Positions 684 through 49,055 of a stretch of 64,000 nucleotides of DNA are shown here, one piece after another. Under the pieces are notes generated by a model. The model was not told the origin of the DNA. It was given only the letters and a program-made list of their open reading frames with translations, and searched no databases. The stretch lies in IMG/VR virus record IMGVR_UViG_2061766007_000727. One strand, given 5' to 3'. The DNA comes from an uncultured virus (IMG/VR IMGVR_UViG_2061766007_000727). Its lineage: Duplodnaviria; Heunggongvirae; Uroviricota; Caudoviricetes. Position 1 is the first letter of the stretch. Each line of letters opens with the position of its first letter. The position numbers and the translations under genes were made by a program.

Positions 684-1385
684 ATGAATTTGAAACGATT
701 AAATGGTAATAAGTCACGCAGAGTGAGTGATGATTACACATATCCAAGCGAGTGGGATGATGAGTTTAAGTATGATGAGAATAACGGACTTTATCATTAT
801 ACTATGGCTGCGGTTGAATTGAAAGGTGGTTATCGTTCAAAATATAAAACAGGTGGTTATGCCGATACCATTGAAGAATGCACTGAACAAGCCAAAATAG
901 ATGCGGAAGAAATGTATAACAAATGGAAAGATTTTTCCGATTGGATTCAAGGTGTATCAAAAGTTGATGTCGAAATCCGTGATAACGAAAAAAATAGCAT
1001 ATTAAACTATTTTTATTTAACAGAAGATAAAGATGGCAGTATGTATATGAGCAAGGGTTGGGTTAATGATTCTCGCAGAATCAAGGATGGTAGTGAATCT
1101 TTTGCGATTACGTTGAGTTCGCAAGGTGGAACTGCAAAAACCTATTATACCAAAGTAGTGGAAGATTGGTATTCTTCTAATTTGGAAGAATGCAAAATGA
1201 AAGCCTTTGATGAAGCAGTTGAATATTACAATGAGATTGTAGCACAAGGTGAAACTTTGGATTGTGTATGGGCAGAAATATTCTATAACGGAAGTGCTTA
1301 CGAGCAAGATGATAGAGAACTTTGTACTATACAGGTGTATTTAAATGAATACACTAATGAGTTTGAAATGGATGATGATTTTTAA
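684..1385 (+). CDS. MNLK-leader protein with two related acidic domains separated by DSRRIKD (putative internal virion polyprotein)
   Basis: N-terminus MNLKRLNGNKSRRVSD; internal DSRRIKD; the halves share TIEECTEQAKIDAEEMYN / NLEECKMKAFDEAVEYYN. Confidence 0.7.
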   Translation: MNLKRLNGNKSRRVSDDYTYPSEWDDEFKYDENNGLYHYTMAAVELKGGYRSKYKTGGYADTIEECTEQAKIDAEEMYNKWKDFSDWIQGVSKVDVEIRDNEKNSILNYFYLTEDKDGSMYMSKGWVNDSRRIKDGSESFAITLSSQGGTAKTYYTKVVEDWYSSNLEECKMKAFDEAVEYYNEIVAQGETLDCVWAEIFYNGSAYEQDDRELCTIQVYLNEYTNEFEMDDDF

Positions 1386-1407
1386 GATTCTTATTTTCAA
1401 TACTTAA

Positions 1408-1526
1408 AAGCGAACTCTTAAAAAAAGTTCGCTTTTTTTATTATCATCTATTGCACGTAACAAAAAATGTATTACTTTTGCTGACGTGATAATAAACAAA
1501 ACGTTGAACTTTTAAACTTTAAGATT
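1408..1526 (+). promoter_or_regulatory. terminator plus host-type early promoter/leader cassette
   Basis: Hairpin AAGCGAAC/GTTCGCTT+T run, then TTGCACGTAA...TACTTTTG (1473-1480), the Bacteroidota -7 element. Confidence 0.75.
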
Positions 1527-1838
1527 ATGAAAGCACAAGTAACAGAACCGAGAAACAAGATGGGTGTAACAAAGCACTTGTTCAGTGACAGTCACGCAGG
1601 AATCATCACTGCCGTTTACTCTCCTACCAAGATTGAGGTGCATTACTTTAAGTATCCTTCTTGGGGGGAGAACGAGGAGATAGAACCCACCTATGGCAAG
1701 ATTGATGATTCACACGAAGCAGAGATTTGGACACTGCGCAAGAGCGGCACTTGGAGACTGCAAGGCAGACCAGACAAGTGGGGAGAATGTTGGTTGTCCA
1801 TCGGCAAGGCATACTCATATAGGTGTATGGATGATTGA
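1527..1838 (+). CDS. hypothetical early protein
   Basis: ORF directly after the early promoter, followed by a terminator at ~1847-1878. Confidence 0.75.
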   Translation: MKAQVTEPRNKMGVTKHLFSDSHAGIITAVYSPTKIEVHYFKYPSWGENEEIEPTYGKIDDSHEAEIWTLRKSGTWRLQGRPDKWGECWLSIGKAYSYRCMDD

Positions 1839-1925
1839 TTAACAATAGGGGGTTAAAAAATAACCCCTTATTTTTTTTGTTACTTTGTAATACATTTTTG
1901 TTTATATTTGGGGGTTGAAACAAAA

Positions 1926-2504
1926 ATGTTATTACTCAATATGGACAACTTCAAGAAACGCATTTGGCTTGAATACCCTGTACCACAACAATTCTCAATA
2001 TGGGGAGGCGATGGAATACACACCTTACCCCTAAAAGACCTTGACGCACTGATAGAGATGAGCGTGGAGGACGTGGCAACCGACATAGTGGTACGAGCCG
2101 ACACACACGCAACAGGGATGACAACCATTCTGCCAGACGATACGGTCACGGTTATGTACGCAACAATGGACTTCTACTTTCAAGGAAACAGACAGGTCAA
2201 GGTGTCCTACGATTCGTCAACCAAGCAGGCTTTGTTAAGGTACTTCCCTGCGACAATAGTCTATCAGCGCAAGATGCACCTTGAGGATGTACCCAAACTG
2301 CAAGGAGACAGACTGATTTACTTCCGCAGTTACGTTCTTTGGAAGATGGGTGACACCGAACTATCGTATCTCAAGACTATGAATATGAATCTCGACAACG
2401 CTTCGATAGACCTTCAAGTGTTGGAGAACTTCGTTAATACGATAAAGGAGAAACTGAATACGTTGAGAGAATCGATACTGATATACTCACCGACAAACGG
2501 ATAG
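1926..2504 (+). CDS. putative neck / head-tail adaptor protein (T4 gp13-like)
   Basis: Size and C-terminal pattern YFRSYVLWKMG...MNLDNASIDLQVL resemble adaptor proteins; ATG 1926 preferred over the upstream TTG; inference only. Confidence 0.4.
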   Translation: MLLLNMDNFKKRIWLEYPVPQQFSIWGGDGIHTLPLKDLDALIEMSVEDVATDIVVRADTHATGMTTILPDDTVTVMYATMDFYFQGNRQVKVSYDSSTKQALLRYFPATIVYQRKMHLEDVPKLQGDRLIYFRSYVLWKMGDTELSYLKTMNMNLDNASIDLQVLENFVNTIKEKLNTLRESILIYSPTNG

Positions 2505-2526
2505 TCTAACAAAAACACAAACAACA

Positions 2527-3327
2527 ATGATAAAGAGTATAAGGAGAAAGGTTTCCAATTGTGTGAACCAAATGTGGTTTGATTTTATGGAGTTTATACC
2601 GTCACAACAACAAAAAGAACATGATTCACAACCGAAGGTCTGTGAGAGAGATATGGTGGAAGTTTGTGAGAAAACCAAACCACAAGCGCACAAGCAGAGA
2701 GCAGAGGTACAAGACGATTACGATGACTACACCAACATACCGACAGACGAGCGTTTCTACAAGCACCCCATCGACAAGAAACTGCTGAAAGAGATGCTCA
2801 CCGACACGGACTGCAAGTCACCGAATGTGTCAGCCTACATCAAGGAACTCAACAAACTCTGCGATGTCATCTTCAACAAGCACTTCTCAAAGTATTACAC
2901 TATGAAGGAGGACTTGGAAGGAGATGCGATAGTTGCGGTCTATAACAAGAGACAATACTACAACCCAGAGAAGGACGCATACAACTTCCTGTACGCAATA
3001 ATGCGCAACGAGATGACCAACAAGTTGAGCAAACTCAACAGAATATCTCTGATTGACGATTATATGCCGTTTGACAACGCAATAGAGCGCAGAAGTACGG
3101 ATGATATGGAGGACATTCCGCAGAACGTACTCAAATGGAGTGACTATATGGTGGGTGACATAGACTTCAATTGGGTTAGGATACCGAGAAAGGACGTGCT
3201 TGAACTGATGGTGTGGTTGAAGATAAACGAGCGTGGTCAGCACCCCAAGATAACACCATCGTATCTCAAGCCAACAGAGGAGAATATGAACGCATTATAC
3301 AAACTGCTTAAACTGATAGTACAATAA
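2527..3327 (+). CDS. putative phage sigma factor (gp55-like, region 2 only)
   Basis: YYTMKEDLEGDAIVAVYNKRQYYNPEKDAYNFLYAIMRNEM resembles the sigma region-2 pattern (ED..D......Y/F.PEK..AY...I..N). Confidence 0.5.
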   Translation: MIKSIRRKVSNCVNQMWFDFMEFIPSQQQKEHDSQPKVCERDMVEVCEKTKPQAHKQRAEVQDDYDDYTNIPTDERFYKHPIDKKLLKEMLTDTDCKSPNVSAYIKELNKLCDVIFNKHFSKYYTMKEDLEGDAIVAVYNKRQYYNPEKDAYNFLYAIMRNEMTNKLSKLNRISLIDDYMPFDNAIERRSTDDMEDIPQNVLKWSDYMVGDIDFNWVRIPRKDVLELMVWLKINERGQHPKITPSYLKPTEENMNALYKLLKLIVQ

Positions 3328-3687
3328 TGGACAACAACGAGAACAATAACGNNNNNNNNNNTTGCTATATCTTTAGGAGTGAGAACATAGACTTGTACAA
3401 GTTGATAATGGTGAGCAGCAAGTGTGCGCAGATGGAGATAACGCAAGGAGAGGAGTTGAATATGCCTGCGGACTACAAGCAGACGATAAACGAGAAACAG
3501 ACATTGGATTACGTTAGAAAGATATTGCTATGGCAGAGATAAAATACATAATGTCCGCAATACCGTATATGGGTAATANNNNNNNNNNGATTTGGAACAG
3601 ATGCCGCAGAAACCCTGTCGAAGAAGTTGAGAAGGGGTTNNNNNNNNNNAATTTGGAACAGATGCCGCAGAAACCCTGTCGAAGAAG

Positions 3688-4140: not shown

Positions 4141-4412
4141 CAACAATTTGATTAGTTGATAACTTTTTTCATATTAGTTTGTAACAATAAACAAATTATT
4201 CCGTATATTTGTAACGTTTAACAATTAAAACGTTATGAGATATGAAACGGACACACGATGATTTCATCAACATTATTCTAAAGCCTGCGTTCTATATCAC
4301 GGACGAGGAGTTGAAGTGGGTTTTGAAACGCAAGGAATCGAAACCATTCCACAACGTGCTTAAAGGTGAGTTGAAGAAACGAGAGGAGAGAAATTTAGCG
4401 TTTGCTTGATTT

Positions 4413-4886: not shown

Positions 4887-4897
4887 AACAAGACACA

Positions 4898-5497: not shown

Positions 5498-5502
5498 AAG
5501 TT

Positions 5503-7050
5503 ATGTTTAATCAGATATATCTTAAAGATGATATTAATCTGTTCGACAATCAGAAACGCAACATCAAGCGTTTGGTGTCGATGAACAGAGCGTTGCTGAC
5601 CGACAGGGTTGGCAGTGGCAAAACGCTTTCGGTGCTTTATTCCTTCGCATACAGGAAGGAGAAGGGACTGAACGATGTACTGCTTGTGTTCACACCGCTC
5701 AACGCATACGAGAAGAAGGTATGGGCGAAGGATGTGGAGAAATTCACAACACTTGAATCAATACCGTTGGAAGGAGTGTACGAGATGATTGACAATGGCG
5801 CAGCGTTGGAGAGCATACTCAAGGAGTATTCGGTTGTTTACTGCAAGCATACACAAGTCAAGGGACTATCCGAACTGATACGCACCATCTGCAACAGAGA
5901 GAAGACACTGCTTGCGATAGACGAGGTACACGCATTCAAGAATCCGAAGTCCAACCTGTCCAAAGCGTTGGAGTTCTGTATGACGAACTGCAAGTGCGTG
6001 TGGGGTATAACAGGCACTACGTTGAGCCGTTCATTAGAAGACACGTATAACATAATCAACGTGGTTTCCAAATGGTATCTTGGGGGATTTCTCAACTTCC
6101 GTTCCACTTACTGCAAGACGAAGACAAAGATAGTGGGTAGGGATAACTACGGAAACATTAAAAAGGTTGAAGAAATAATCGGAATCAAGAATCCGCAGGC
6201 GTTCCGAGAGAAGATAGAACCGCTTGTTATCAGTGGTGAATCGTTCTTGAACGTTAACTTTCATTATGTGGACTACAACCTGTCGGAAAGGGAACAGACC
6301 ATCTACACGAAGATTGCTAACGGAATAACCGATGACAACGAGAGTGATGAGAGTTGGTTGAGCGATGTGTTGGGAAGTGATAGTGTCAAGTCCAAACCGA
6401 TACGGCACATCAAGGACATCAACGCACATAGTTCAAGGTTCATATACTTACAGAGTGCCGCAGACGGAGTTCTTACGGAGGACGGAACGCAGGACGGAAT
6501 GTACGGAACGAAGATGGATTCGCTTGTGAGCCTAATTAAAGGCATTGTAGCGAAGAAACAATCAACGATAGTATATTTCGACTACCTATGCAGTTTGGAT
6601 GTCGCAGAAGCGAGAATAAAGGCATTAGGAATGAATGTAACCATACTGCGCAGCACGGGAAGTGATGTGATAAAGGATGGAGTGGTTACGGAGGATGGTG
6701 CGAAGGAGAAACCATACGTGATTCTTGGTACAAGGGCGAGTTCGGAGAGTGTTTCGTATTACTTTATAAACAACGTGGTGTTCTTTCACATTCCGACAGT
6801 GCCGCATATCTTTGTTCAGTTGGTGGGAAGGATAACGAGGAAGAACACGTTGTACCCAGACGATTTGAACTGCTACATATTCAGAAGTGAGAACATAGAC
6901 TTGTACAAGTTGATTATGGTGAGTAGCAAGTGTGCGCAGATGGAGATAACGCAGGGGAATGAGTGGAATGTACCTGCGGACTACAAGCAGACGATAAACG
7001 AGAAACAGACGTTGGATTACGTTAGAAAGATATTGTTATGGCAGAGATAA
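5503..7050 (+). CDS. SF2 (SNF2-like) helicase/ATPase
   Basis: Walker A DRVGSGKT, DEVH box, TGT motif III, QLVGRITR motif VI. Confidence 0.9.
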   Translation: MFNQIYLKDDINLFDNQKRNIKRLVSMNRALLTDRVGSGKTLSVLYSFAYRKEKGLNDVLLVFTPLNAYEKKVWAKDVEKFTTLESIPLEGVYEMIDNGAALESILKEYSVVYCKHTQVKGLSELIRTICNREKTLLAIDEVHAFKNPKSNLSKALEFCMTNCKCVWGITGTTLSRSLEDTYNIINVVSKWYLGGFLNFRSTYCKTKTKIVGRDNYGNIKKVEEIIGIKNPQAFREKIEPLVISGESFLNVNFHYVDYNLSEREQTIYTKIANGITDDNESDESWLSDVLGSDSVKSKPIRHIKDINAHSSRFIYLQSAADGVLTEDGTQDGMYGTKMDSLVSLIKGIVAKKQSTIVYFDYLCSLDVAEARIKALGMNVTILRSTGSDVIKDGVVTEDGAKEKPYVILGTRASSESVSYYFINNVVFFHIPTVPHIFVQLVGRITRKNTLYPDDLNCYIFRSENIDLYKLIMVSSKCAQMEITQGNEWNVPADYKQTINEKQTLDYVRKILLWQR

Positions 7051-7943
7051 AATACATAATGTCCGCAATACCGTATATGGGTAATAAGTACAAGTTACTC
7101 AAACATCTTGTACCCTTGTTTCCAAAACAATGTAACACCTTTTATGATTTATTTGGTGGAAGTGGTTGTGTATCAATAAATTATAGGGGGGGGTATAACG
7201 TTATATACAATGAGTTCAATGAGAATATAGTTAAGTTGCAGCAGATGATAAAGTCAGAAAACATAGAGCAACTTGATTCATATTACAAGGATATTATTAA
7301 GCGATATGATTTGCGCACACAATCCAACAAGAAGGATTCTAAAAAGAATGAGCAGGGTTATTTGAAACTGCGTGATGAATACAACAAATCAACTGACAGA
7401 GACATTCGTATTCTTTATTTGCTTATATGTTATTCGATAAACCATTTGATACGATTCAACACTAATTCCGAGTTCAATGTTTCAAATGGTAATGATGCTT
7501 ACAATGATATAGTTAAGAATCGTTTGGTTAACCATCACAATTCGTTGCAGGACACAACTATTTGGAATAAGAATGTGTTTGATATTGATTATAGTTTGAT
7601 AACACAAGATGATTTTGTTTATCTTGACCCACCTTATTCAAACACACAAGCGGTTTACAACGAGAAACGAGCGTTTGGTGGTTGGACTGTGGAATCCGAT
7701 TACAAACTGTTTGATATTATTGATTCACTCAATAAGAGAAACGTTAGGTTCGGAATGTCGAATGTGTTTACTTGCAGAGGAAAACAAAACAACCATTTGA
7801 TTGAATGGTGTGGTGATAATGGTTATAAGGTTTACCATTTCAACAGGAACTACAATCCGTTCTCAAGGGGTAATTCCGACAATGATGAGGTTTATATAAC
7901 GAATTACCAAACAAAACAACCACAACAACTATCCTTGTTCTGA
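7038..7943 (+). CDS. dam: DNA adenine methyltransferase (Dam/D12 class)
   Basis: PYMGNK, DLFGGSG SAM-binding motif and YLDPPY catalytic motif; contains an in-frame G8 tract at 7186-7193. Confidence 0.93.
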   Translation: MAEIKYIMSAIPYMGNKYKLLKHLVPLFPKQCNTFYDLFGGSGCVSINYRGGYNVIYNEFNENIVKLQQMIKSENIEQLDSYYKDIIKRYDLRTQSNKKDSKKNEQGYLKLRDEYNKSTDRDIRILYLLICYSINHLIRFNTNSEFNVSNGNDAYNDIVKNRLVNHHNSLQDTTIWNKNVFDIDYSLITQDDFVYLDPPYSNTQAVYNEKRAFGGWTVESDYKLFDIIDSLNKRNVRFGMSNVFTCRGKQNNHLIEWCGDNGYKVYHFNRNYNPFSRGNSDNDEVYITNYQTKQPQQLSLF

Positions 7944-7944
7944 A

Positions 7945-7955
7945 TTATATATTAG
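7945..7955 (+). promoter_or_regulatory. putative late promoter TTATATATTAG
   Basis: Exact motif copy upstream of MNLR-leader gene 7992. Confidence 0.65.
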
Positions 7956-7991: not shown

Positions 7992-8663
7992 ATGAATTTA
8001 AGAAACAGAATGAATAGGAATAAGGTTCAAGATTATTCTTATAGAAGTGCGGCAAGGTATAACAAAAGAAACGATGAGATTTTTGCAAGTTATGAGAAAT
8101 ACATTCAAAAAGAAATGGAATGGTTAAGGCGGCAAGGGGTTTCGGAAGATGAGATTCAAAACGCATACAGACACACAGGTCTGGGTGGCAGTGGTATAGC
8201 AAAACTCATTCAGCAAGTCGCACTTGAGAATGGTGATAACAGAGAACTTTCGGAAATATTGGGAGAAGCACATTCAATTTCCGATTCTCGCAGAATAAAG
8301 GATGGTGTAGGTACAAACGCTATGAACTTGAATGGGTATAAGGTTTATATAAAGGATATGGATACTTATACCAATAAAATCAGTGATGAAGAATTACAAT
8401 CTTTGTTTGATTTTCCTTCTTCAAAAGAATTTCAGTTAAAAGATTTTTTAAATGGAGTTGCTGATGTTGCTGAAAGTTTGGGTGATTTAATTGTACTTAA
8501 ATACTCACGAACAACAAATTGGTATTTTATTGAATTAGATAGCAAATCTATGGATGCAACAATATCATTTACAGTAGAAAAGATTGAAAGTTCACCTAAC
8601 TTTCTTTATGATATTGAAGAATATTTTAATGATAAATCTGTTAAAGTTATTATTGATAAATAA
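7992..8663 (+). CDS. MNL-leader protein with internal DSRRIKD (putative internal virion polyprotein)
   Basis: MNLRNRMNRNKVQD leader; ISDSRRIKDG between two unrelated domains. Confidence 0.7.
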   Translation: MNLRNRMNRNKVQDYSYRSAARYNKRNDEIFASYEKYIQKEMEWLRRQGVSEDEIQNAYRHTGLGGSGIAKLIQQVALENGDNRELSEILGEAHSISDSRRIKDGVGTNAMNLNGYKVYIKDMDTYTNKISDEELQSLFDFPSSKEFQLKDFLNGVADVAESLGDLIVLKYSRTTNWYFIELDSKSMDATISFTVEKIESSPNFLYDIEEYFNDKSVKVIIDK

Positions 8664-8811: not shown

Positions 8812-10006
8812 ATGAAAATCAAGATGCAGTTTGAGGTAAAGGTCTATAACGACTATAAGATGCAAGATTGGCACTATGAGGTCAAGGAGATAGTACACGA
8901 ATGCGACCCTAACAAGAGTAGCCGTGACAACTTGTCCGATGCCTTTGAGGAAGCGGAGAGGAACGGACACGATTATCGCAGAACAACACGTTGGTCTTAC
9001 ATTAACGAATAAATACTACTATGGACAACAACTTACAAGAGGCACTGAACGCAGTGCAGAAACTAAAGGGTATGAGCGCATCGCAGTACAGACGTGAGGC
9101 GCACCACAACTATCAGTCTTACGGCAGGTTTGAGGACATCCTTCATCAGTACCAATACGATGCCGAAGCGGATTACATCCATTCCTTCTATATGGAAGGA
9201 TACCATTGGGAGGAATATGATTGTGATTGTTTGTAACTAACATTTTAAAAACATACAATTATGCAATATCGAATATCATTTACAATAGATTCGTCTATAA
9301 CAGATTTATCTGCAACTAATCTCAAAAAGATTAGAGATGCCGTAAAGTATTTGAATATAGATGTTGAAGATGAGATAATTGGTTTTCCAAGATATATCAA
9401 AATAAAAGAATTTAAAGTACGTAAGGCACGTTATTCACTTAAAAANNNNNNNNNNAGAATATGATTGTGATTGTTTGTAACATTTCAGAATAAACACATA
9501 CAATTATGCAATATCGAATATCATTTACAATAGATTCGTCTATAACAGATTTATCCGCAACCAATCTCAAAAAGATTAGAGATGCCATAAAGAATTTGGA
9601 TATAGATGTTGAAGATGAGATAATTGGTTTTCCAAGATACATCAAAATAAAAGAATTTAAAGTACGTAAGGCACGTTATTCACTTAAAAAATAAATTACA
9701 ATCATGAAAGCATCACAGATGTTCAACGCACTGCCGTTAGGTGTGAAGTACAAGTGTCTTGTGAAGGACTACTCAAGGCTCAACGCATACACCACCGAAC
9801 TTGAGAAGAAACTCAAGTCATCCAAAAGTACACACGAGGAGATACGCAACGCATTACAAGGCTTGTCCAATCGAGGACACAAACGTGCGTTTATATACGT
9901 TGAGTTCCTTAAATACCTAATTGAGAACAACTACATAACGATAAACACCAACGACACACCGACACAACTTGGAATTAAGTTTGAGTTGATGCACGGAGTT
10001 AAATAA
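8812..10006 (+). CDS. cluster of small hypothetical early genes (8812-9012, 9021-9236, 9506-9694 [allelic copy at 9261], 9704-10006)
   Basis: Closely spaced + strand ORFs after the early promoter. Confidence 0.65.
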
Positions 10007-38696: not shown

Positions 38697-38709
38697 AATT
38701 TAAAGAGTT

Positions 38710-40589
38710 ATGAAACAATTAAGGAACAAAACCGCAAACAGACTAACGTTTGCCGATGTCACGGGCAACTACGAGGAAACAAAGACCATTGAGAGCAAGA
38801 GTGAGAGTGGCACTATAACCACCAATGCGACAGACGGAGAAACGAAGTACGTGAAACCAATCTACCACACAGGATATGTGTTTGAAGTAGAAAAGAAACT
38901 TGTGGTGGCAAGTTCTATGGCGAATGCGATAGCGTTGTACTGTGCGGAGAAGCGTTGCAAAGAAACAGATGTTACCAACGTTAAAAGATTAGGAATTGAT
39001 ATAACAACAACTTATGGTTGTGGAGGAACAGATTATGATGCTATAATTGAAGGGTGATTATGAGAACGGAAGAATTGAGAATAGGGAATTTGGTGATGAA
39101 CAAACAATCAAATAACCCACATAAAATAACACACCAAGACATTTATTCACTTGTGGAAGGTATGTTAAATAAAAGCGTTTTTGAACCCATCAAACTGTCT
39201 GTTGAAATCGTTGAGAAGAACTTTAAGAAAAGTGACAGATTCAAGGGATTTTGGGAGTTGGGTAAACTTTACAGTATCACTGAAAATAGTAACTACGGAT
39301 TCATCTTGTGTACGTTGGATATGGATGAGTTCGGTGGTGGATATTATGTACCCTGCATACCTTGCACCTATTTTCACGAATTACAAAATTTGTTAGTTGA
39401 TTTAAGAATAGATAAAAAGATTAAGTTATGACAACGGATGACATAAAGTATATGCAGATAATGCTCGTTGACAACGAAGGTAAGGGTTATCTAACCAAGA
39501 CTGACGATAGCATACTGATAAAGATGATTGTGTCAATGTGCAAGTTCGTTGAGTTGAAGGGAAAGTTAGAAGAAATATCAATAGGTGAACTAATTAAGTG
39601 AAAAGAGTTATGAGAATCATTATTTACACAGACAGGGAAACCCAAAAGGTTAGAAGGGTTGAGACAAGATTCCCCAACAGTATCACGGATGATGAACTGA
39701 AAAAGAGAGTTGAGGAGTACAACAACAATGAGAGCAACCGATGGTCTGTCGAAATCGTTGATGTTGACGGATTGGTGTGCGAGGCGTTCAAGTTCCTGCT
39801 TGGGGAGGATGAGTACCGCACCACACACGAACTGACTGATTTGAAGGGTTGGTTTGAGGAGTTGAATCAGCGCATAGAGGAACTTGATGATGCGAGGTCG
39901 GATATTGAGTACGACATTAGGCAGATGATTAGAAGAATTGAGGAGAAGGAATTATGAAAGATTTGTTGAGATTCTTGTGGTTTGTGATAACATTGGCAGC
40001 ACCTTCAATATTAATGGTTTTACCTTTAGGTTCATTATTCAATGCGTTTGGAATACAATTCAGTATGAAAGAAACGTGGTGGATTTGTGTTTCTGTGGTA
40101 TTTGTTATCACCATTATAACAATAATGGTTTGCAGTTTGATTTGCATTTTCAAATCATTCAAGGATGATTGAGTTTTAAACGATATTTCCCTAAAAGAAT
40201 ATTTTTGAGAAGCGAACCCTAAAAAGTTCGCTTTTTTATTTGGAAGTAATAAAAAATGTATTACTTTTGCCGATGTGATAAACAAAACAGATGTTGAACA
40301 ATTTAAATTTAGAGTTATGAAAGTGAAAATTTTTGAGTTTAGGGTTTCAATCGGTAATGGTTCAAATCTTACAGGTGCGGAGGGTTGCTGGGCGAAAAAT
40401 TGGGATGACAACGCTCACAAACTCACTCCGACAAAACAACAGGAGAAGGAGATAAACAAGTTTCTTGAGAAAGTTGAAAAGGATGGTGGAGAGGTTGTAA
40501 ACATAAACGAGAATGTTTACACATATTCACACCACAACAACGGAGGTTGTGATTCGGTGATTGTGAGATACACAATCATCTACAAATGA
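38710..40589 (+). CDS. hypothetical genes (38710, 39060, 39610, 39954 2-TM, 40317-40589)
   Basis: ORF track; early cassette at 40210-40316. Confidence 0.7.
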
Positions 40590-40596
40590 AACGTTG

Positions 40597-40606
40597 TTAT
40601 ATATTA
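40597..40606 (+). promoter_or_regulatory. putative late promoter TTATATATTA
   Basis: Motif heads the 40640-42961 operon. Confidence 0.6.
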
Positions 40607-40639
40607 TAGTTAGATTTTAATATCTAAATTTTAAATGAT

Positions 40640-40984
40640 ATGAATTTAAATAAATTAATGAAAGTTAACGATAGCAGTTTTGATGTACAAGCAAGACAGA
40701 ATGAAATTGATTACATTAAGGGTGTTGTTGCTATGGCAAATGAAATGTTTGATATGGGTGATTACAATGATTTGGAAGGTGAAATAAAAGCATTTCTAAA
40801 AGAAAAGGGTTTTAAATATGCAGGTGATGCGTATCTTGCAGGTAATGGCAGATGTTACGTGTGGGTTTTAAAAGAAAACAAATTAGGTGATTTTGGAATT
40901 ATGTATAACGTAGAATATAATTGGCATTATCCAAAAGTATGTGATTTCTCTTTTACATCAAATGCAGAAATGTGGATAGAATAA
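40640..40984 (+). CDS. MNL-leader protein (MNLNKLMKVND)
   Basis: Shared leader pattern. Confidence 0.7.
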   Translation: MNLNKLMKVNDSSFDVQARQNEIDYIKGVVAMANEMFDMGDYNDLEGEIKAFLKEKGFKYAGDAYLAGNGRCYVWVLKENKLGDFGIMYNVEYNWHYPKVCDFSFTSNAEMWIE

Positions 40985-41015
40985 ATAAAATATTTAACAA
41001 TTTTAATATTATACT

Positions 41016-41432
41016 ATGAATCTTAAAGAAATTACAAAGAAACAGAAACTCGCTGACGCAAAGCAGCAGAGGGTTGAGGACTTTATGAGAAGTGGCGGTA
41101 GCGGAAACCTTCGTACTTCTTTGTTCGGCAGAAAAGACGAGGTTGTTACAAAAGAAATGGAGAAGGAGTTTAAAGAAACAGTAACAGACGCTCTTTTGAA
41201 TGAGGAGATATGGGGTGTGAATGGTCAAGAGTATAAGAACAAGCAGGTTATGGAGTTTTACGTGAAATTCCCAGACGCAGTGACGGTTGGAAAGGTTGAT
41301 GCCTTGCTTGCGAAAGTTGACTACAACAAGGAAACCCACGTGTTCACCGCTTTGTACAGACCGAAAGATGGTAAATGGGGACAAGCGGTAGCGACAGGTA
41401 AGAAGTTGGGTAAGAAATTAGGACAACATTAA
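41016..41432 (+). CDS. MNLK-leader protein (MNLKEITKKQKLAD)
   Basis: Shared leader pattern. Confidence 0.7.
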   Translation: MNLKEITKKQKLADAKQQRVEDFMRSGGSGNLRTSLFGRKDEVVTKEMEKEFKETVTDALLNEEIWGVNGQEYKNKQVMEFYVKFPDAVTVGKVDALLAKVDYNKETHVFTALYRPKDGKWGQAVATGKKLGKKLGQH

Positions 41433-41464
41433 TTGAATTGTTTAACAATATAAATACTAAAGTT

Positions 41465-41854
41465 ATGAGTTATTCTTATAGAGAAGCGGTCAAAGAAGAT
41501 ATTAAGAATTATCTTATTGACAATCAAATCAAGTGGTCTGCTGATACAAGGGATGATGTAGAGCAAGATTTAAACGATGATTTATGGGCGGAAGATTCTG
41601 TCACGGGTAATGGTAGCGGATATTATGACGATGCCGCTTATGACCATATACACGGTGATTATGATGCAATGGATTTGGTTCGTGAGTGTGTATCGGATTT
41701 TGGTATTGAAGCGGAAACTATTGCTGAAAAATTCTTGGAAGAAGATTGGAGTTATTGGGATGTTACCATTCGTTGCTATCTTTTAGGTCAAGAAATAGGA
41801 GAGGCAATGGATGAGATTGAACAAGAGAATCCTTATGATTGGAACGAAGAATAA
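41465..41854 (+). CDS. highly acidic protein, possible Ocr-like DNA mimic
   Basis: D/E-rich; loose by-eye resemblance to T7 gp0.3 (Y.E.VKE.I..D...DL.D...YY...IR.Y.L...E). Confidence 0.45.
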   Translation: MSYSYREAVKEDIKNYLIDNQIKWSADTRDDVEQDLNDDLWAEDSVTGNGSGYYDDAAYDHIHGDYDAMDLVRECVSDFGIEAETIAEKFLEEDWSYWDVTIRCYLLGQEIGEAMDEIEQENPYDWNEE

Positions 41855-41867
41855 AAACATAAAGGTT

Positions 41868-42184
41868 ATGGATTTAGCAGATATTTGGGATTATCTCGTA
41901 GATATGGGGATAGCCACAGACGATGAGATTAAGTTGGTTACTGACATTAATGGTTTGACAAAGGAAACTCTTAATGACATTATTTATGCAAGGACAGGAT
42001 ACCACAGTATCGAACAACTTCAAGATGAAATAGAAGCCGAATAATAATTTGATTTATTATGCAGAGTAACAAATTAAATAAGAGCCTTACGAAGACTTGC
42101 ACCACCGCAAAGAAAATCAGCAAATCGTTGGTTGACTATCAACGCACAGGCAAGACGAAGGCTGAACGTGGATTGAAAAAATAA
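41868..42184 (+). CDS. two small genes: acidic 41868-42044 and basic 41-aa 42059-42184
   Basis: Open frames with ATG in AT-rich context. Confidence 0.55.
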
Positions 42185-42212
42185 ATGTTTAACAATTAAA
42201 ATATTTTGAGTT

Positions 42213-42961
42213 ATGGATGCAACTGAATTATTATGTGCGGTTTTAGGTGATTGCGGATACGCTGACATTGAGCCTATGTTTGGTGATATGGATGGTGATT
42301 TGATTTACGATGCTATTGATATGTGTAAAGACAATGGCGGAGATTTATCTGCAAACGGAATTTGGTATGAAGCAATATATAGCGCAATATGCCAAGTTTT
42401 CGGTGATGAGTATGTAGATGGTTTTGAAATTTATCCGAACTGTATGGCATCATCAGTGTCTGTTTACGATGACGTTAAAGCACAAATTGAAGACTTTGAT
42501 GAGAAAGTCAAGGAGTTTGAGCAGTTGACAGGTCAGCCTTTGAATTGGTAGAATTTTTTTTAACGTGGACTGAAAAAAATAAGTATTTAACAATTTAAAA
42601 AGATAGAGTTATGGGAACAAATGTTTGTGAAATAATAGCGGAACGTCTGTTAGAAACAGATGTGGTTTATATTAAAGATACGTTGGACGGAATCGAACCT
42701 TCAATATTAAATGATGCAGTTGCAAGAGTTAAAGAAATGAATCAAGGTACGTGGGATTTATCTTTACGAGACATTTGGGAAGAAGCAATGTGGGTTGCTT
42801 TGGAAAAGGTGTTTGGTGACGATTATGGCTCATTTGGTTTAGGCAATGAAAACTCATATAATGTTTGGGCTTACGAAAGTGATTTGGAAGGTATTGAAAA
42901 CCTTGATGAAAAAATTGCCGAGTTTGAAGATTTGACTGATTTTAGAATTAGTTTGTATTAG
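42213..42961 (+). CDS. tandem paralogous acidic proteins (42213-42551, 42611-42961)
   Basis: Shared IW.EA...VFGD.Y..F...DEK..EFE.LT motifs; duplicated intergenic sequence. Confidence 0.8.
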
Positions 42962-43029
42962 AGAATCTTTTTTTAACGTGTATAAAGTGGTGAGACCCTA
43001 ATCGGTGAGAATCGGTTGGGGTTTTGCTT

Positions 43030-43040
43030 TTATATATTAG
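43030..43040 (+). promoter_or_regulatory. putative late promoter TTATATATTAG
   Basis: Exact motif, after a terminator hairpin and before the neck genes. Confidence 0.7.
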
Positions 43041-43055
43041 AGAAATAGACTTACA

Positions 43056-43892
43056 ATGATACTTGACGAGCGCAGAAAGACGGTTAACAGATTCATGGTG
43101 GGTATGGCGGACATCCAACTCGCACATAACGCACTCGCATCGGAGATTATACTGATATACAACGAACTATCCGTTGACCATTACCAAGATAGCCTAATAG
43201 CCGAAGTAGAGCGTTGCAAGAAACTCGCCATCTTCCGCAAGAAGGATGATATGAACTTCGTGCCGCAGGAGGACTTCAACTACAAGGAGGAACTTGTGGA
43301 GGACACCGACAATATTCCGTATGAGGTTCTGCTCACCGCCACAGGCTTGCCACGTATGCCGAGAAAAGATGATATGGTACTGAATGATGGTGTTCTCTAT
43401 TCAGTCCACCACGTCAAGCCAATCAATCGTGACTACAAGGGTTTGTGGCAACTGATAGTGTACCCAGAGCGCACCACGTTCATAGACACTCTGCATATAT
43501 ACAAGGCACTTCTTCTCAATCCGAAGAATCTGTTTCCGATACACGATATAATGGAATATCTGAACGAGGAAGATGAAGTCATTGAGCAACCTATAGGTTT
43601 AGGAATGGGTTTGGGTGCAACGTTAGGTTCGACAGACGGAAGTGTTACACCGATAGACGAGCCGAGTGATGGTGAGCCTGCTGACGAGCCGACAGAGCCG
43701 AGCGGTGATGTCAAGACGAAGGATGTGATAGTGGATTTCGTGTGGGGTGGCAAGCCAGAGTTTCTGTCGCTTGACAAGACGAAGACTTGGATTCCGTTTG
43801 AATCGAGGATAAAGATTGAGATGTCAACAAACAACATACACCCTATTCTTTATGTGAAGGGTAATTTGGAGGTAATACAAGTTAGGTTATGA
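43056..43892 (+). CDS. putative head-closure/neck protein (gp14-like)
   Basis: PRKDDMVLNDGVLYSVHHV beta-barrel pattern; position upstream of the tail module. Confidence 0.5.
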   Translation: MILDERRKTVNRFMVGMADIQLAHNALASEIILIYNELSVDHYQDSLIAEVERCKKLAIFRKKDDMNFVPQEDFNYKEELVEDTDNIPYEVLLTATGLPRMPRKDDMVLNDGVLYSVHHVKPINRDYKGLWQLIVYPERTTFIDTLHIYKALLLNPKNLFPIHDIMEYLNEEDEVIEQPIGLGMGLGATLGSTDGSVTPIDEPSDGEPADEPTEPSGDVKTKDVIVDFVWGGKPEFLSLDKTKTWIPFESRIKIEMSTNNIHPILYVKGNLEVIQVRL

Positions 43893-44494
43893 TTTATAGT
43901 TACGAGGCTGGCATATTAGGATTGGTGAACGCAATAGTACCGCAGATAAAGATTGCGACATACGCAAGCGAGGACAACGTGTTTGAGTTGATGCGACCTG
44001 TGACGAAGTTCCCTGCGTTCTATTACTCAAGGGGCAGCACCGAATGGACGCTCAACAAGCGTATGCCCATTAGGTGCGGAACGGAGAGTGCGGTGTTCGT
44101 ACCCTACGAGCAGACATACACGGGTAGGATTCTTGTGGAGAATCAAGGGCAGGCTATCAAGTTGGCGAGTGCCATTAGGTTCGGCATAGCCAAACATCCG
44201 TACATAACGATAGACTTTCCGAAGGAGGGTGAGCCGTTGGATGTGCAGGTTAGGCTGACATCGATAAGCATAGGCGAGGAACGCTCACAGGAGAGCGATA
44301 AGGGTGCGTTGCGGTATGTTGAGTTCAAGTGGCAAAGTCAGTTGTTTATGTGCGACTACGATGACGCATACTACGATGGCAAGTTGGTTGAGAAGATTAA
44401 CATTTGGGTTAATCCGAAGGGACTTACCGAAGCACAGATATACGATGAGGACGGAGTGTTTGTTTCGATTCCATTGACACCGATAAATATTTAG
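43889..44494 (+). CDS. putative tail terminator/completion protein (gp15-like)
   Basis: FPAFYYSR...PYEQTY pattern and synteny. Confidence 0.5.
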   Translation: MIYSYEAGILGLVNAIVPQIKIATYASEDNVFELMRPVTKFPAFYYSRGSTEWTLNKRMPIRCGTESAVFVPYEQTYTGRILVENQGQAIKLASAIRFGIAKHPYITIDFPKEGEPLDVQVRLTSISIGEERSQESDKGALRYVEFKWQSQLFMCDYDDAYYDGKLVEKINIWVNPKGLTEAQIYDEDGVFVSIPLTPINI

Positions 44495-44526
44495 GGGAGA
44501 ATATTTGGAAGTAATAAAAACTTTGC

Positions 44527-44662
44527 TACTTTTGCAGAGTAGAAAATAATGAAGGTATTGAATGGGTAACGGCAGACAATATCGGAATTGAAGATAATAA
44601 GGTTTAAATAACCGAAGAACTTGTGGTTTGATGTCCGTTACCATCAGGCTACAAGTTTTTTG
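44527..44662 (+). promoter_or_regulatory. host-type promoter, 6-codon uORF and alternative terminator/antiterminator
   Basis: TACTTTTG 44527; uORF 44549-44569; 16-bp hairpin 44618-44657+T run whose loop pairs with 44565-44572. Confidence 0.45.
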
Positions 44663-44697
44663 TTTTGTATATGTTTAACAATTAAAATATAACGAAT

Positions 44698-45585
44698 ATG
44701 AATATTAAAGATATGAGTACCATAAATGATGGTAAGAACAAGAACAAAAAGAAAGCGCAAGTTCCACAAACTAACGAACAATCTCAAGAACAACCCACGT
44801 TCTTTAGAAAAATAATGATGTATCAAAAATACTTTAAAGAGTTTTTTGATGAGTGTCCTGCCGATGTGCAAAAGGAGTATAATGAGAAATTCAAGATGAT
44901 AGAAACAACCAAAGGTTTCATTCCAATAAACGCTTTTAAACAACTGCAAGGACATAAAGGATTGTATGAGATTAGAATATCCACAAAAGATAATATTTAT
45001 CGTACATTCACAACCTTTGACAAGGGTAATATTATTGTGTTATATAACAGTATTATAAAGAAAACCCAAAAGACACCCAAGCAAGCGTTGGAGAATGCGG
45101 AAAGATTGCGTAAGGAATATGGCGGAGACCAATCAAAACTAACGCAATTCATAGTTAAGGACAGTCTTGAGGACAACCTTGAGAATGATGCGGCAATAGA
45201 GATTGCGGAACAGTTGTATCAAGATTTCAAGAATGGGAAGGGGAAAGTCTATGATATAGATTTTATGGATATTGAGAACGCACAGAAAGTAAAGGATTCC
45301 CAATGGAGAACAGGTTTTCCGAGAGGTTGCGGTCTTTACGCAGAAACAAGGTGCTATTATCAAGATGACCAAATGATTGATTGTGATGTTTTTGTTCAGT
45401 TCGGTTACAAGTCGGATGTGGAAAATGAAACAATTACCGAAACAAAGAACGGCATTACAACCATAACACAGACTGCCGAGTTTTTTACTCGTTATGAGGA
45501 GGAGATGGATAATTGGATTGATGAGTTTGTGTTTCAAATAAAAAAGGAATACGGTGTAAATTGTAATGTGGAGTATTGGTATTAA
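44698..45585 (+). CDS. MN(I)K-leader multidomain protein containing a RelE/HigB (Gp49-like) toxin domain
   Basis: GLYEIRI...NIYRTF..FDKGNIIVLYNS.IKKTQKTPK..LE.A.RLRKEY; VKD motifs at the domain boundaries. Confidence 0.8.
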   Translation: MNIKDMSTINDGKNKNKKKAQVPQTNEQSQEQPTFFRKIMMYQKYFKEFFDECPADVQKEYNEKFKMIETTKGFIPINAFKQLQGHKGLYEIRISTKDNIYRTFTTFDKGNIIVLYNSIIKKTQKTPKQALENAERLRKEYGGDQSKLTQFIVKDSLEDNLENDAAIEIAEQLYQDFKNGKGKVYDIDFMDIENAQKVKDSQWRTGFPRGCGLYAETRCYYQDDQMIDCDVFVQFGYKSDVENETITETKNGITTITQTAEFFTRYEEEMDNWIDEFVFQIKKEYGVNCNVEYWY

Positions 45586-45641
45586 AATTTGATTGGTAGT
45601 TATATATTATAGTAGTTATTAACAATTAAAAATTTGTAATT

Positions 45642-45997
45642 ATGAATTTAAAGCATTTAAAATCAGTTAGTTACGGGGGGGGCAATCTCGTAGGATAAAA
45701 GATGCCTCAAAATATCCTTATTATAGCGAAGAACAGATTGAGCAGATGGTGAGAGAAGAAGTGTTAAACAATTCGTTAGATAGTTTGAAAACACAAGTTA
45801 GAAATGGTGTCCGCTCATATATACACTCACTAATAAATGAGTATGTAAGTCAAAGTAAAAATCCTTCGTACGGTAAGGGTGTTATTGAAGCAAAAGGGGG
45901 TGGCATTACACACGGATTATCACCACGTTTTGTAAGCGATTTAGTTGATGAAGTTTTGGATAAATTAGGATTATCTGATTTTAAATTCAAAATGTAA
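45642..45997 (+). CDS. MNLK-leader gene split by a G8 tract (needs a -1 shift or G9)
   Basis: Late promoter at 45600; frame 0 reads MNLKHLKSVSYGGG; the -1 frame continues QSRRIKDASKYPYY...MVREE to TAA 45997. Confidence 0.7.
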
Positions 45998-46142
45998 TTT
46001 TAAAACATACTTTCAAAAACACGGAAACCTTAAAAAAGTTTCCGTTTTTTGTTTAAAAAAATTCCAACTTTTCTATTGTGGAATAACAACCAACCTATTA
46101 TATTTGCGTTATACAAACTAAAAACATTAAATATAATAAAAA

Positions 46143-46598
46143 ATGGAATATCTTACAACAGATTGGTTGGAATCAAAGGGGTTCAAGAGTAAGGGTAACT
46201 CAATATACCAACTCACAAAAGGTGACACCACATTCGGTGCAGACCTTCTCAAAGGTTTGGTTTGGATAGACGGAGAGGACATCTACGTTATGAAACGTGC
46301 CGACACAATTGACGAGTTGGCAAAAGCCTTCGCCATCTGCGGATACGACACCAAGTTCAAGTATTCGTCACCAGAGAAGAAGGATGATTTCAACTTGACA
46401 GTCGGTTGGCTTGCGTTCAACGGATTCGTGCGCACAGACGAGCATAAGTGGGAACGCAGGGGTGATGAGTTCATAGTGAGGTATAACTTCAACACCAACA
46501 TCCTTTCCGTTGTTTCCAACGATATGGTGGAGGGTTACGAGGGCAAGGTGTTGTCGGAGGATTTGGCGAGAACGATAATAAACGAGATTTTTGCGTAA
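46143..46598 (+). CDS. hypothetical protein with internal duplication (LTTDWLESKGF / LTVGWLAFNGF)
   Basis: Early promoter TATATTTG at 46099. Confidence 0.75.
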   Translation: MEYLTTDWLESKGFKSKGNSIYQLTKGDTTFGADLLKGLVWIDGEDIYVMKRADTIDELAKAFAICGYDTKFKYSSPEKKDDFNLTVGWLAFNGFVRTDEHKWERRGDEFIVRYNFNTNILSVVSNDMVEGYEGKVLSEDLARTIINEIFA

Positions 46599-46636
46599 GA
46601 AGTTATATATTGGAGTGTAAAAAGGTTTCACAGAAG

Positions 46637-46885
46637 ATGAGTAATATAGAAGTTGATAGCAAGAACGATTGGATACTTATAGCGTTGTTGGCGGCAGCGA
46701 TAGTTTTCATTTGTTTGGGTTTGGAAGGTTGCACCGCAACAAAGCATTATTCGTACAAGGTCACGTTCAACGATGGCAGTGTTGAGTATTACGAACTGCC
46801 GTATAAGGTGAAGAAGGATAGCAAGGCTATCGAGTACAATGGTGAGACGATATTGGGGGTTAAGGAGACGGAATTATTGAAATAG
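46637..46885 (+). CDS. putative lipoprotein (spanin-like possible)
   Basis: Hydrophobic signal ending LEGC; late-like motif TTATATATTG at 46603. Confidence 0.55.
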   Translation: MSNIEVDSKNDWILIALLAAAIVFICLGLEGCTATKHYSYKVTFNDGSVEYYELPYKVKKDSKAIEYNGETILGVKETELLK

Positions 46886-46963
46886 GATTTTTGCTCATAA
46901 ATATTGTTTTGAAAAGCGGAAGCGGAGATTGGAGAAATTCGGTTTCCGCTTTTTGTTTACAAG

Positions 46964-46973
46964 TTATATATTA
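46964..46973 (+). promoter_or_regulatory. putative late promoter TTATATATTA
   Basis: Directly upstream of the tail sheath gene, after a terminator. Confidence 0.7.
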
Positions 46974-47014
46974 AAGAAAAAGAATTTGTAAACGAATTTA
47001 AAACATAATAGAAC

Positions 47015-48850
47015 ATGGCAAAAGCAGAATCAATACTTGACTTGATAGATGTCAAATTTCAAGATGCAACCAACCACGTATCGTTTGTGAGCGATGACAT
47101 AATGGGTTTGGTTATGCCTTATTATTGGGGTGAATCGGACAAGGTGTCGGTGCATAACAAGACAACGTTCTACGAGATGTACCCAGAGAGTTTGCCGATT
47201 GGTGTCAAGACACTGACAGACGCAGACCGAGACATATATAGCGGTTATGCGCAGGTGAAGGCTTACTTCGCACACGGAGGCGGACAGGTCGAGGTTTACA
47301 GACCGTCAAAAGGGTTCGGTTTCCAACGTATGACGATTAAGGAAGATGGTGTATCGGATTTCGCCTTCTCGCAAGACGGTAAGCAACACGATGAATCGGC
47401 ACAAGTTAGTATTGCGTTGAAATACTCTGGCTTTGTTCCGCAGTCGCTTGCGAGTGGATTTGACAACATTGCGGTCAAGGTTGAGCCGATAGAAGGTGGT
47501 ATGGAAGGTTACGATGGTACTGATGTGGTGAGAATATCAGTACAGGGTTGCAAGGCATCCAATGGTGATACTTATGTTTACACCGAAGTTAATAATCCTT
47601 CAAATGTCAATCCGAAAAAGAAGGGTTGGTATGTAACAGATGGTACTGATTATGTTCTTACCGAAGATGAGACGGTTGTTGAAGGACACGTTTACTACAA
47701 GCGTCAGATAGACACGAGAGCCTTTGGTGAGTACGCTGACTTGGAGATATTTGAAGGAAGTACCAATCCACTTGCAAATATAAGTGGTGAGAACATCTAT
47801 CTTGAGAATGTGGTCAACTCGCAGTTTATTGATGTGAGGGTGTTCGGTGCGATTGATGGTTCTGCCATTACGGAAACAACAAAAGATTGTCTTGTATATG
47901 ACAATAACGAATATACACAGAGAGTTGACGATGACGTTAAAATCAGTCAAGACATTGCCGATGGCATAGTTGACGGATACAAGTATTTCCGTGATTTTGA
48001 GACATCGAACTGCACATTGGTAATCAACCCTTACGTTAACTCGACACAGACAAGATACGATGACATTGATGCCGCTATCGCTACATTGGCAGAGTATCGT
48101 AAGAACGTGATGGCAGTGATTGGTTATCCTGTGAATCTGCCTTACGTGGTGGAAGATACAACCGTTACACCAAGTGTGGGTATCGTGCCTTACTTCAAGA
48201 ATAACGCAGGCAAGGGTTACAAGTTCTGCATTGCGGTGCAAGGGCGTGAGATAATAACCTTGTTTGGATACAGATACACCTTGAACTGCGTAGCAGGTTA
48301 CTGCGGCAAGATGATAAATGTTGCGAAGGAGGCTCACTTGAACCAGATTGCGAGTGGTTACATCTACGGCACTTATGGTGGTTCGTTGAAGGAATCATTA
48401 TTGAGTGGTGATGTGATTGACTTGATGGAACTTGGAATCAACTCTGTATATACTTCAAAACGTGGTAACATCATTTGGGGTACGAGGACGATGTATAGCA
48501 AGCAGAGTTCTTACTTCGGAAAGACGAATGTTATGCGAGTTTGCAGTGCGATATTGAAGAACATCTATCCTATTGCGGTGGAGACCTTGCACACAGACGC
48601 AGCGTCTAATCCGATTACGAGAGCATCGTTGAGTACAATGCTGAATAGTGTGCTTGACACGTTCATCGCAAACCAAGACCTTCACGCTGATTCGATTGCC
48701 GATTGTTCGGATTCGATAAACACCGATTACTTGACGAAAGGTGGCACTGTCTTGAACATCATTTTGAGACTGCACTTCATCGGATTGGTAGAGCGTGTAA
48801 GCATCAAGATTATTGCAACAGACACATCGGTAACGGCTGAATTTGTATAG
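47015..48850 (+). CDS. tail sheath protein
   Basis: C-terminal LMELGINSV...IIWGTRT...NVMRV...VERVSI sheath signature; 611 aa. Confidence 0.9.
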   Translation: MAKAESILDLIDVKFQDATNHVSFVSDDIMGLVMPYYWGESDKVSVHNKTTFYEMYPESLPIGVKTLTDADRDIYSGYAQVKAYFAHGGGQVEVYRPSKGFGFQRMTIKEDGVSDFAFSQDGKQHDESAQVSIALKYSGFVPQSLASGFDNIAVKVEPIEGGMEGYDGTDVVRISVQGCKASNGDTYVYTEVNNPSNVNPKKKGWYVTDGTDYVLTEDETVVEGHVYYKRQIDTRAFGEYADLEIFEGSTNPLANISGENIYLENVVNSQFIDVRVFGAIDGSAITETTKDCLVYDNNEYTQRVDDDVKISQDIADGIVDGYKYFRDFETSNCTLVINPYVNSTQTRYDDIDAAIATLAEYRKNVMAVIGYPVNLPYVVEDTTVTPSVGIVPYFKNNAGKGYKFCIAVQGREIITLFGYRYTLNCVAGYCGKMINVAKEAHLNQIASGYIYGTYGGSLKESLLSGDVIDLMELGINSVYTSKRGNIIWGTRTMYSKQSSYFGKTNVMRVCSAILKNIYPIAVETLHTDAASNPITRASLSTMLNSVLDTFIANQDLHADSIADCSDSINTDYLTKGGTVLNIILRLHFIGLVERVSIKIIATDTSVTAEFV

Positions 48851-48854
48851 TGGT

Positions 48855-49055
48855 ATGAATTTGAAACGTTTGGCACGGAAAAGGATTAGAGACGAGTTTG
48901 CGGTTGCGCCATCGTCTTCATTAATCAAGCGGTTGGTTGGCAATCTTTCGGAGAGTAGGGACATTATAGACCGCTACTTTCCGAAAAGTCAGACCGCAGG
49001 AGAGTTTATAAGTGCGTTGGATGAGATGCAGTATTATTTTGAGGAATATAAATAA
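48855..49055 (+). CDS. small MNLK-leader protein (MNLKRLARKRIRD) between sheath and tube
   Basis: Shared leader pattern. Confidence 0.65.
   Translation: MNLKRLARKRIRDEFAVAPSSSLIKRLVGNLSESRDIIDRYFPKSQTAGEFISALDEMQYYFEEYK

Follow-up and report, generated by a model that had tools for sequence, protein, structure and literature searches.

The prohead protease gp21 of bacteriophage T4 cuts after glutamate (Glu) according to the rule I/L-x-E, and the T4 proteins gp22, gp67, and gp68 are scaffold or core proteins. T4 gp21 is activated by removal of its own N-terminal residues (PMC9958956), and gp245 of phage SPN3US cuts off its own C-terminal propeptide (PMC7411985). Here, we analyzed a stretch of 64,000 nucleotides (hereafter the window) from an uncultured virus of the Caudoviricetes (IMG/VR record IMGVR_UViG_2061766007_000727), in which otherwise unrelated proteins have in common a short N-terminal leader that ends in a hydrophobic-x-aspartate (Asp) motif. 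Comparison with relatives of this virus suggests that an Asp-specific gp21-type protease trims these leaders and splits packaged polyproteins, a reading that we consider likely as a whole.

We propose that the motif marks where cuts are made by the phage family's own gp21-type (Peptidase S77) prohead protease, which would have switched its P1 residue from Glu to Asp and would recognize [RK]-[VI]-x-D followed mostly by S, G, or A. As the head matures, this enzyme would shorten itself at its ends, process the capsid N-arm and the scaffold, and remove the leader from small head-internal proteins. Leaders and linkers would dock their proteins on the prohead core before being cut out. Many of these small head-internal proteins are chains of modules of about 60–190 residues joined by a two-site linker, [IV]SD-SR-R[VI]KD, the basic half of which has the same sequence pattern as the leader's end. 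Cleavage at both sites, which are six residues apart, would release a basic hexapeptide and leave free modules inside the head. Cleavage at the Asp motif is very likely, and packaging of the window's proteins via the basic leader is probable. Ejection of these proteins into the cell, with a take-over or counter-defense role, is finely balanced, leaning slightly toward the doubtful.

The window (G+C content 38%, genes on the plus strand) is part of a myophage and contains genes for a dUTPase, an SNF2 helicase, and a methyltransferase, many small genes, and then tail genes. No recognizable head gene was found among the 50 window proteins scanned. Single-protein IMG/VR scans with 684 (genes are named by their first position), the sheath, and the tube recovered no relative. 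No cultured close relative emerged either: the sheath matched nothing among 50,697 phage records. The tail sheath has 37 homologues, several of them on contigs of 135–155 kb, and an alignment of 32 of these, used as a query, recovered seven IMG/VR and seven metagenome loci. Four relatives were read whole (G001 to G004). G001 is a complete relative of 142 kb with terminal repeats, and its sheath is 55% identical to that of the window. It has a T4-type head, with a protease (PF03420, Peptidase S77), a capsid protein (PF07068, gp23), and a portal (PF07230, gp20). The Peptidase S77 protease, with its His/Ser/Asp triad, adjoins the gp23-type capsid gene in G001 and in L046-L061. The best named matches of the capsid protein and the protease reach 20–33%.

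The family's proteases carry invariant Asp-type sites that flank their catalytic core. We aligned 65 of the 75 protease homologues with the query (66 rows). The triad of His75, Ser133, and Asp160 is invariant in the family and common to the outgroup gp21 proteins. Three non-catalytic residues, Asp16, Asp177, and Asp196, are likewise invariant (66/66), with Ser next in 65/66 rows and I, V, or L two positions before in 65–66 of the 66. Asp143 is also invariant and lacks this hydrophobic-x-Asp-Ser context. In an alignment of 12 rows, five of the six proteases from the outgroup have hydrophobic-x-Glu at the Asp177 column, and a 97/97 branch, subject to a long-branch warning, sets the six Asp-type rows apart from the others. 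A model of the protease (mean predicted local distance difference test [pLDDT] score 83.6) matches T4 gp21 (5jbl) with a template-modeling (TM) score of 0.77 by target and a root-mean-square deviation (rmsd) of 2.3 Å over 156 columns, which approximately cover the span between Asp16 and Asp177. Residues 1–9 and 173–176 of the model are of low confidence. We also observed that Tyr44 and Asn166 (G001 protease at 76253-76948, L018:16256-16948, minus strand) are invariant in the 66 family proteases and are replaced by Arg and Ser/Gly in 6/6 outgroup proteases; from their distribution, they are candidate specificity residues.

Capsid N-arms exhibit a double dissociation, with Asp in the family and Glu in the outgroup. 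In eight family capsid proteins (34–68% identical, chosen from 21 loci to avoid near-copies), [IVL]xD[SA] occurs 16 times within the first 85 residues, where 1.2 are expected, and never in the rest, where 6.3 are expected. The count of [IVL]xE in the same N-arms is at expectation (8 versus 7.7), so that the T4 I/L-x-E rule does not hold there. Five outgroup capsid N-arms, including that of RB43 gp23, have no Asp-type site and 16 [IVL]xE sites against 4.4 expected. The second family capsid site aligns beside the Glu sites with which the outgroup N-arms end. The original prediction, made from the window alone, had postulated an Asp-specific analogue of the T4 gp21 sites and had recommended a search of capsid and scaffold proteins. 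That search supports the idea: the motif is present in the relatives' protease, capsid N-arm, and scaffold-like proteins.

These data also bear on the reading that the basic peptide is a repeated docking signal for the prohead core, with chains left uncut like beads on a string. Positions P4 and P2 of the sites are mostly basic, as a binding motif could be. There is a precedent for targeting only, which counts against cleavage: according to PMC9026906, Asp at the last position of a T4 leader blocks processing by gp21, while targeting still works. However, the motif occupies the places of cleavage in T4-type proteases and capsid proteins, the mature portion of the eight capsid proteins lacks it, and between clades it exchanges with Glu. 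We thus regard docking without cleavage as quite unlikely.

G001 contains 112 matches to [RK][IV]xD against 51.5 expected (z 8.5, 0/200 shuffles as high), and 22 matches to [IV]SDS against 1.9 expected. Control motifs in G001 are near chance ([RK][IV]xE, 62 versus 49.5 expected; [RK][IV]xN, 40 versus 39; [RK]LxD, 34 versus 28) or somewhat raised ([IL]xE, 505 versus 428; the reversed motif, 72 versus 52). The enrichment in the distant relatives is z 3.5 (G002), 3.0 (G004), and 2.0 (G003). The G001 sites crowd into about ten proteins, namely, the protease, the capsid protein, two scaffold-like proteins, and chains of 400–770 residues that are punctuated by [IV]SD-SR-R[VI]KD. A site matrix for which the training sites came solely from proteases and capsid proteins detects 96 sites in G001, against 37.5 ± 5.5 in shuffled sequence. 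Its density per 1,000 residues is 10.6 in four head-core proteins of G001 versus 1.25 in tail, 0.62 in fiber-like, and 1.0 in DNA genes, a contrast weakened by the presence of the G001 protease in the training set, by two scaffold-like proteins having been picked by eye, and by our own assignment of the classes.

Within the window, six of the seven open reading frames (ORFs) first listed as leader carriers have the start and N-terminus claimed for them, and the seventh, 45642, is broken by a frameshift. The leader pattern ^MN[LIF][KRN] is found in 6/114 plus-strand ORFs, and all six have [IVL]xD within residues 7–17, compared with 16/108 others (Fisher p 3e-5, a value flattered by the derivation of the pattern from the same ORFs). 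The internal copies are also confirmed, as DSRRIKD in 684 and 7992 and as IVKD and KVKD in 44698. At threshold 6, the matrix selects 6/7 of the listed ORFs versus 21/107 others, and at threshold 7, 4/7 versus 10/107. A role of MNLK itself as the signal, as first put forward, is not supported. Because M[KR][RK][VI]KD forms the very start of five of the 39 motif proteins, the common element is the basic half of the linker rather than MNLK.

Several observations weigh against the proposed protease system. The window is tied to the Asp-type head genes through its sheath (55% to G001) and through shared modules. The [RK][IV]xD motif is weak in the window itself (33 versus 23.1 expected, z 2.2, 3/200 shuffles as high), and the separation by the matrix declines at threshold 8 (2/7 versus 6/107, p 0.08) and threshold 9 (2/7 versus 3/107, p 0.03). 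The G001 portal is without any site. The protease model places Asp16 within a strand and Asp196 where a helix ends, and the conservation of these two residues could be structural. Furthermore, 44698 follows a host-type promoter and not the late-type motif, and most modules scanned, other than the few named below, have no known family match.

Module borders coincide with the motif. With 7992 as the query, 19 matches were obtained among 1.84 billion representatives. Most of these matches cover either residues about 8–105 or about 95–221, next to differing neighbors; the borders are the linker, and in relatives each of the two modules is found beside other partners. Among 39 motif proteins (7 from the window, 16 from G001, 3 from L013, and the 13 of P0114–P0126, with P0127–P0131 left out), 78/133 alignment ends internal to the proteins are no more than 12 residues away from a motif, against 30.7 expected, a count in which the ends are not independent and the linkers were unmasked, which also tempers the case. 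The proposal that these are modular polyproteins with the motif at domain junctions is supported by both data sets, since module homology ends at the motif. The first module of 7992 is also found in P0128, P0129, and P0131, which are proteins with Glu-type flanks. P0129 has KLHEGCGKKKLKE where P0123 has ISDGCGRKVKD, that is, the same linker in two keys.

A related possibility is that the sites are true protease sites and that the proteins bearing them serve as scaffold or filler of the core, as T4 gp22, gp67, and gp68 do: they would help to build the head and then be degraded or retained but never delivered. The two G001 proteins richest in sites (85159 and 2286) look like scaffolds, 41016 and 48855 are conserved in place, and few modules belong to enzyme families. 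Against this, the spacing of sites is bimodal: 32/101 gaps measure 5–7 residues (25 of them exactly 6) and 44/101 measure 60–190, such that sites cluster at linkers and spare the modules. Modules are also found in new combinations, and close strains differ by the gain and loss of genes. Finally, the modules that can be named, RelE/HigB-like (44698), MutS_I-like (P0115), and Pol beta thumb (G001 99586), are not scaffold folds. We therefore judge filler without delivery to be unlikely. The same three names mark the limit of an earlier claim: leaders do occur on unrelated modular proteins, as had been predicted, while a role of the modules as anti-defense effectors is unsupported, with only these three nameable. 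The window ORFs scanned gave no PHROG or Pfam match to T4 internal proteins or Alt. We also considered whether the cargo is especially acidic, which was unsupported (median net acidity 0.013 versus 0.028).

Leader carriers are concentrated in late-gene units. The motif TTATATATTA has nine matches in the window, all on the plus strand (0.43 expected; nine reached in 0/100 shuffles), and eight of the nine are directly upstream of genes, the sheath included. When genes are assigned to their nearest upstream promoter, 6/29 in TTATATATTA units carry the leader versus 1/83 elsewhere, behind host-type promoters (p 0.001, a count that includes 45642 and uses our own promoter list). As a family-wide signal, TTATATATTA is ruled out for G001, which lacks the motif yet keeps the leaders. 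We also note that a gene at 20777–21295 stands behind TTATATATTA among early genes, without a leader and without a family match. A sigma-70 region 2-like protein is encoded at 2527–3327 (PF04542, expect value [E] 8e-5, just under the cut-off). It has homologues in G002–G004, where the protease and sheath genes come after AATTATATATCC, and has no tblastn match in G001, where late genes follow the host-type TAnnTTTG. This protein is a candidate late sigma factor for TTATATATTA that would have been lost in one lineage.

Shared promoter DNA raises the question of whether a copied cassette of promoter, ribosome site, and first codons in an AT-rich genome accounts for the leaders, with the Asp motifs being chance or a trace of recombination. 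Late genes do have similar DNA in front of them, with the similarity reaching as far as the first codons (families D15 and D16), the linkers of 684 and 7992 share 6/7 codons where 2.7 are expected, and the window-wide enrichment is as modest as given above. By contrast, codon sharing among 13 G001 linkers is near chance (192 versus 171 ± 16), leaders persist in G001 without the promoter motif, and the Asp residues are invariant in 66 proteases. Because the G001 linker codons are no more alike than chance, the constraint on linkers acts on the protein; linker DNA as a recombination hot spot is likewise unsupported in G001. Protease invariance, the codon test, and the capsid comparison together largely refute a DNA cassette, which we consider highly improbable.

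Table 1. Leader genes, promoters, and associated features of the window
Feature	Position	Strand	Description
Late-type promoter motif TTATATATTA	642..651	+	Heads 684
684, two-module candidate cargo	684..1385	+	Leader ends RVSD (Asp16); double linker site Asp130/Asp135 (1062-1088)
Late-type promoter motif	7945..7954	+	Heads 7992
7992, two-module candidate cargo	7992..8663	+	Leader ends KVQD (Asp14); linker ISD-SR-RIKD (8274-8303)
Late-type promoter motif	40597..40606	+	Heads 40640 and 41016
40640, single-module candidate cargo	40640..40984	+	Leader ends KVND-S (Asp11)
41016	41016..41432	+	Leader with two sites, KLAD and RVED
Host-type promoter copy, then stable hairpin with T run	44502..44665	+	Upstream of 44698; z -4.95
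44698	44698..45585	+	RelE/HigB-like module (PF05973, residues 48-139) and C-terminal module, fold without match
Late-type promoter motif	45600..45609	+	Heads 45642
45642	45642..45997	+	Leader and module split by frameshift at G8 run 45675-45682
Late-type promoter motif	46964..46973	+	Heads tail sheath operon including 48855
Tail sheath	47015	+	Followed by tube (49081) and baseplate-like genes
48855, 66-aa protein between sheath and tube	48855..49055	+	Leader ends RIRD (Asp13)

The leader genes differ in how they are conserved. The intact ones encode proteins of 233 (684), 223 (7992), 114 (40640), 138 (41016), 295 (44698), and 66 (48855) residues. For 684, scans found no family match, and the ESM Atlas gave no usable match for either 684 or 41016. 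Variation between sequencing runs affects 40640, 44698, and the module that follows 45642, while 41016 and 48855 are conserved. The accessory gene 40640 is covered in run X4; contigs from X5 and X10 skip it, one from X10 joining 40623 to 41015. The stretch 43885–46022 is replaced in X4. This skipping of 40640 and 44698 and this replacement among close strains resemble the T4 ip loci, which are variable (PMC12373910). In contrast to the variable genes, 41016 is a conserved, same-place gene in L001 and L013, and 48855 is conserved in place in L001 (62%) and L013 (44%). Because they are kept in the same place, 41016 and 48855 may belong to the core of the head and not to the accessory cargo.

The least certain member of the set is 44698. 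PF05973 matches it and both of its homologues above the cut-off (E 1e-16), and no antitoxin family match was found next to it. The structural model is poor (mean pLDDT 54.9, 3 sequences, 150/295 residues under 50) and gives no clear fold match, the best row being HigB1 (Z 5.0, rmsd 3.7, 75 aligned). Both motifs fall in low-confidence stretches of the model, which says little given its quality. The hydrophobic-x-Asp-Ser site at Asp155 (45151–45162), after the RelE-like domain, is kept in 3/3 homologues, and the homologue P0134 has a typical leader. The second internal copy, KVKD (residues 197–200), had been taken for a junction; it is probably none, as P0134 lacks it and the module around it is conserved as a whole. 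Upstream, an X5 contig that skips 44698 skips the hairpin unit as well. In the hairpin region (44540–44670), which has no Rfam match, a stretch at about 44564–44578 is complementary to the hairpin loop, as in an attenuator or small RNA.

The ORF 45642, listed at first as intact, stops after 18 codons, and its QSRRIKD lies in another frame behind eight G, with RIKD at 45692–45703 in the downstream frame. This break is probably real, as judged from two contigs: that of a possible source sample is identical over 38000–52000, and an X5 contig from another study covers 45613–47292 with 12 gap letters that, by our own count, are explained by ten listed indels, all beyond 46000. It is probably an old lesion or a slippage switch. 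In an X10 contig, the 45642 leader is also present and reads in frame into another sequence, KRLGSRISDS, with a loose end at 45679. The window contains only two G or C runs of at least 7, at 45675–45682 and at 7186–7193, the latter in frame in the DNA methyltransferase gene 7038; both are possible slippage switches.

The host of the phage is probably a rumen Bacteroidales species, because the window contains Bacteroidetes-like promoter repeats and the sequencing runs containing its DNA are from animal gut, mostly bovine. The repeat family in question ends in TACTTTTG and resembles the Bacteroidetes housekeeping promoter. No tRNA genes or Rfam matches were found in the window. Other genes include 25036–26082, whose N-terminal part matches the Thoeris inhibitor Tad3 (PF25185, E 9e-22) and which has a same-start homologue in G001, and 53350–54618, a gene with an Amidase_2 domain within the tail module, downstream of a tape-measure-like gene. 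Near the G001 head module, at 79418–81271 (L019:384-1271, minus strand), are two paralogous genes; one was scanned and has weak Hint/intein-like matches (E 1e-3, under the cut-off), and the relatives' versions range from about 160 to 976 residues with a common start. The window also has six N gaps with duplicated flanks, e.g., at 187–196, 3352–3649, 9446–9455, and 16040–16049, where 1–186 is like 2545–2730, 3363–3578 like 6871–7086, and 9246–9445 like 9491–9690. These gaps are probable scaffolding artifacts.

In our literature search, neither an Asp-cutting gp21-type protease nor this phage family was described in any paper, although supplements, which were outside its scope, could list such sites. 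Tentatively, the family may have re-keyed a T4-type head protease from Glu to Asp together with all of its substrates, with a self-excising basic hexapeptide serving as a portable load-and-release joint, by which any module could join a packaged polyprotein and be delivered free, including a RelE-like RNase. A 2026 preprint describes activation by gp21 of the cyclic-oligonucleotide-based antiphage signaling system (CBASS) via Glu sites in a sensor loop (PMC12991175). We speculate that a Glu-to-Asp switch may evade immune sensors of Glu-cutting prohead proteases. From the sequence rule, the set of head-internal proteins and the ends of mature proteins can be predicted for an uncultured family of 130–155 kb gut and rumen phages, and the two clades provide a natural Glu versus Asp pair with which to study what sets specificity in gp21-type proteases. 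Were the modules to be ejected, they would form a pool of small uncharacterized candidate take-over or counter-defense proteins.

Three known systems resemble the one proposed here. Phage polyvalent proteins are multi-domain, shuffled, and thought to be packaged and processed, and BECR/RelE-fold RNase domains occur among them (PMC5512222); several shuffled domains per chain are also seen in the motif proteins. The difference is that processing there is ascribed to built-in zincin metallopeptidases (PMC5512222), and Pfam scans of 23 and 28 proteins, at thresholds that could miss weak homology, detected no polyvalent-protein domain or metallopeptidase. In SPN3US, one of the phiKZ-like giant phages, a single protease, gp245, cuts many head proteins with Ser preferred after the cut (PMC10052503) and removes its own C-terminal propeptide (PMC7411985). 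Unlike the Asp specificity proposed for the family's protease, that of gp245 is for Glu; it processes many proteins in the head, cutting head ejection proteins after A-x-E, and besides self-cleavage, the cuts identified remove N-terminal propeptides rather than inter-module linkers (PMC10052503).

The proposed system works like T4 gp21 and the capsid-targeting leaders of IPI, IPII, IPIII, and Alt, to which the relatives' protease, capsid, and portal add homologous machinery. In both, a short N-terminal leader ending in hydrophobic-x-acid stands on unrelated, variable late proteins, and sites are found in the capsid N-arm, in scaffold-like proteins, and in the protease itself (PMC9958956, PMC9026906, and PMC12373910). 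The family differs in having Asp for Glu at the inferred P1, a basic P4, and a leader that is basic and variable in length. It also joins several modules per gene by two-site linkers, whereas the T4 internal proteins described in these sources lose only an N-terminal peptide. On sequence grounds, the family's system is a variant of T4 gp21 and its targeting leaders, with homologous machinery, and not the plain T4 system, because the defining I/L-x-E rule gives way to Asp.

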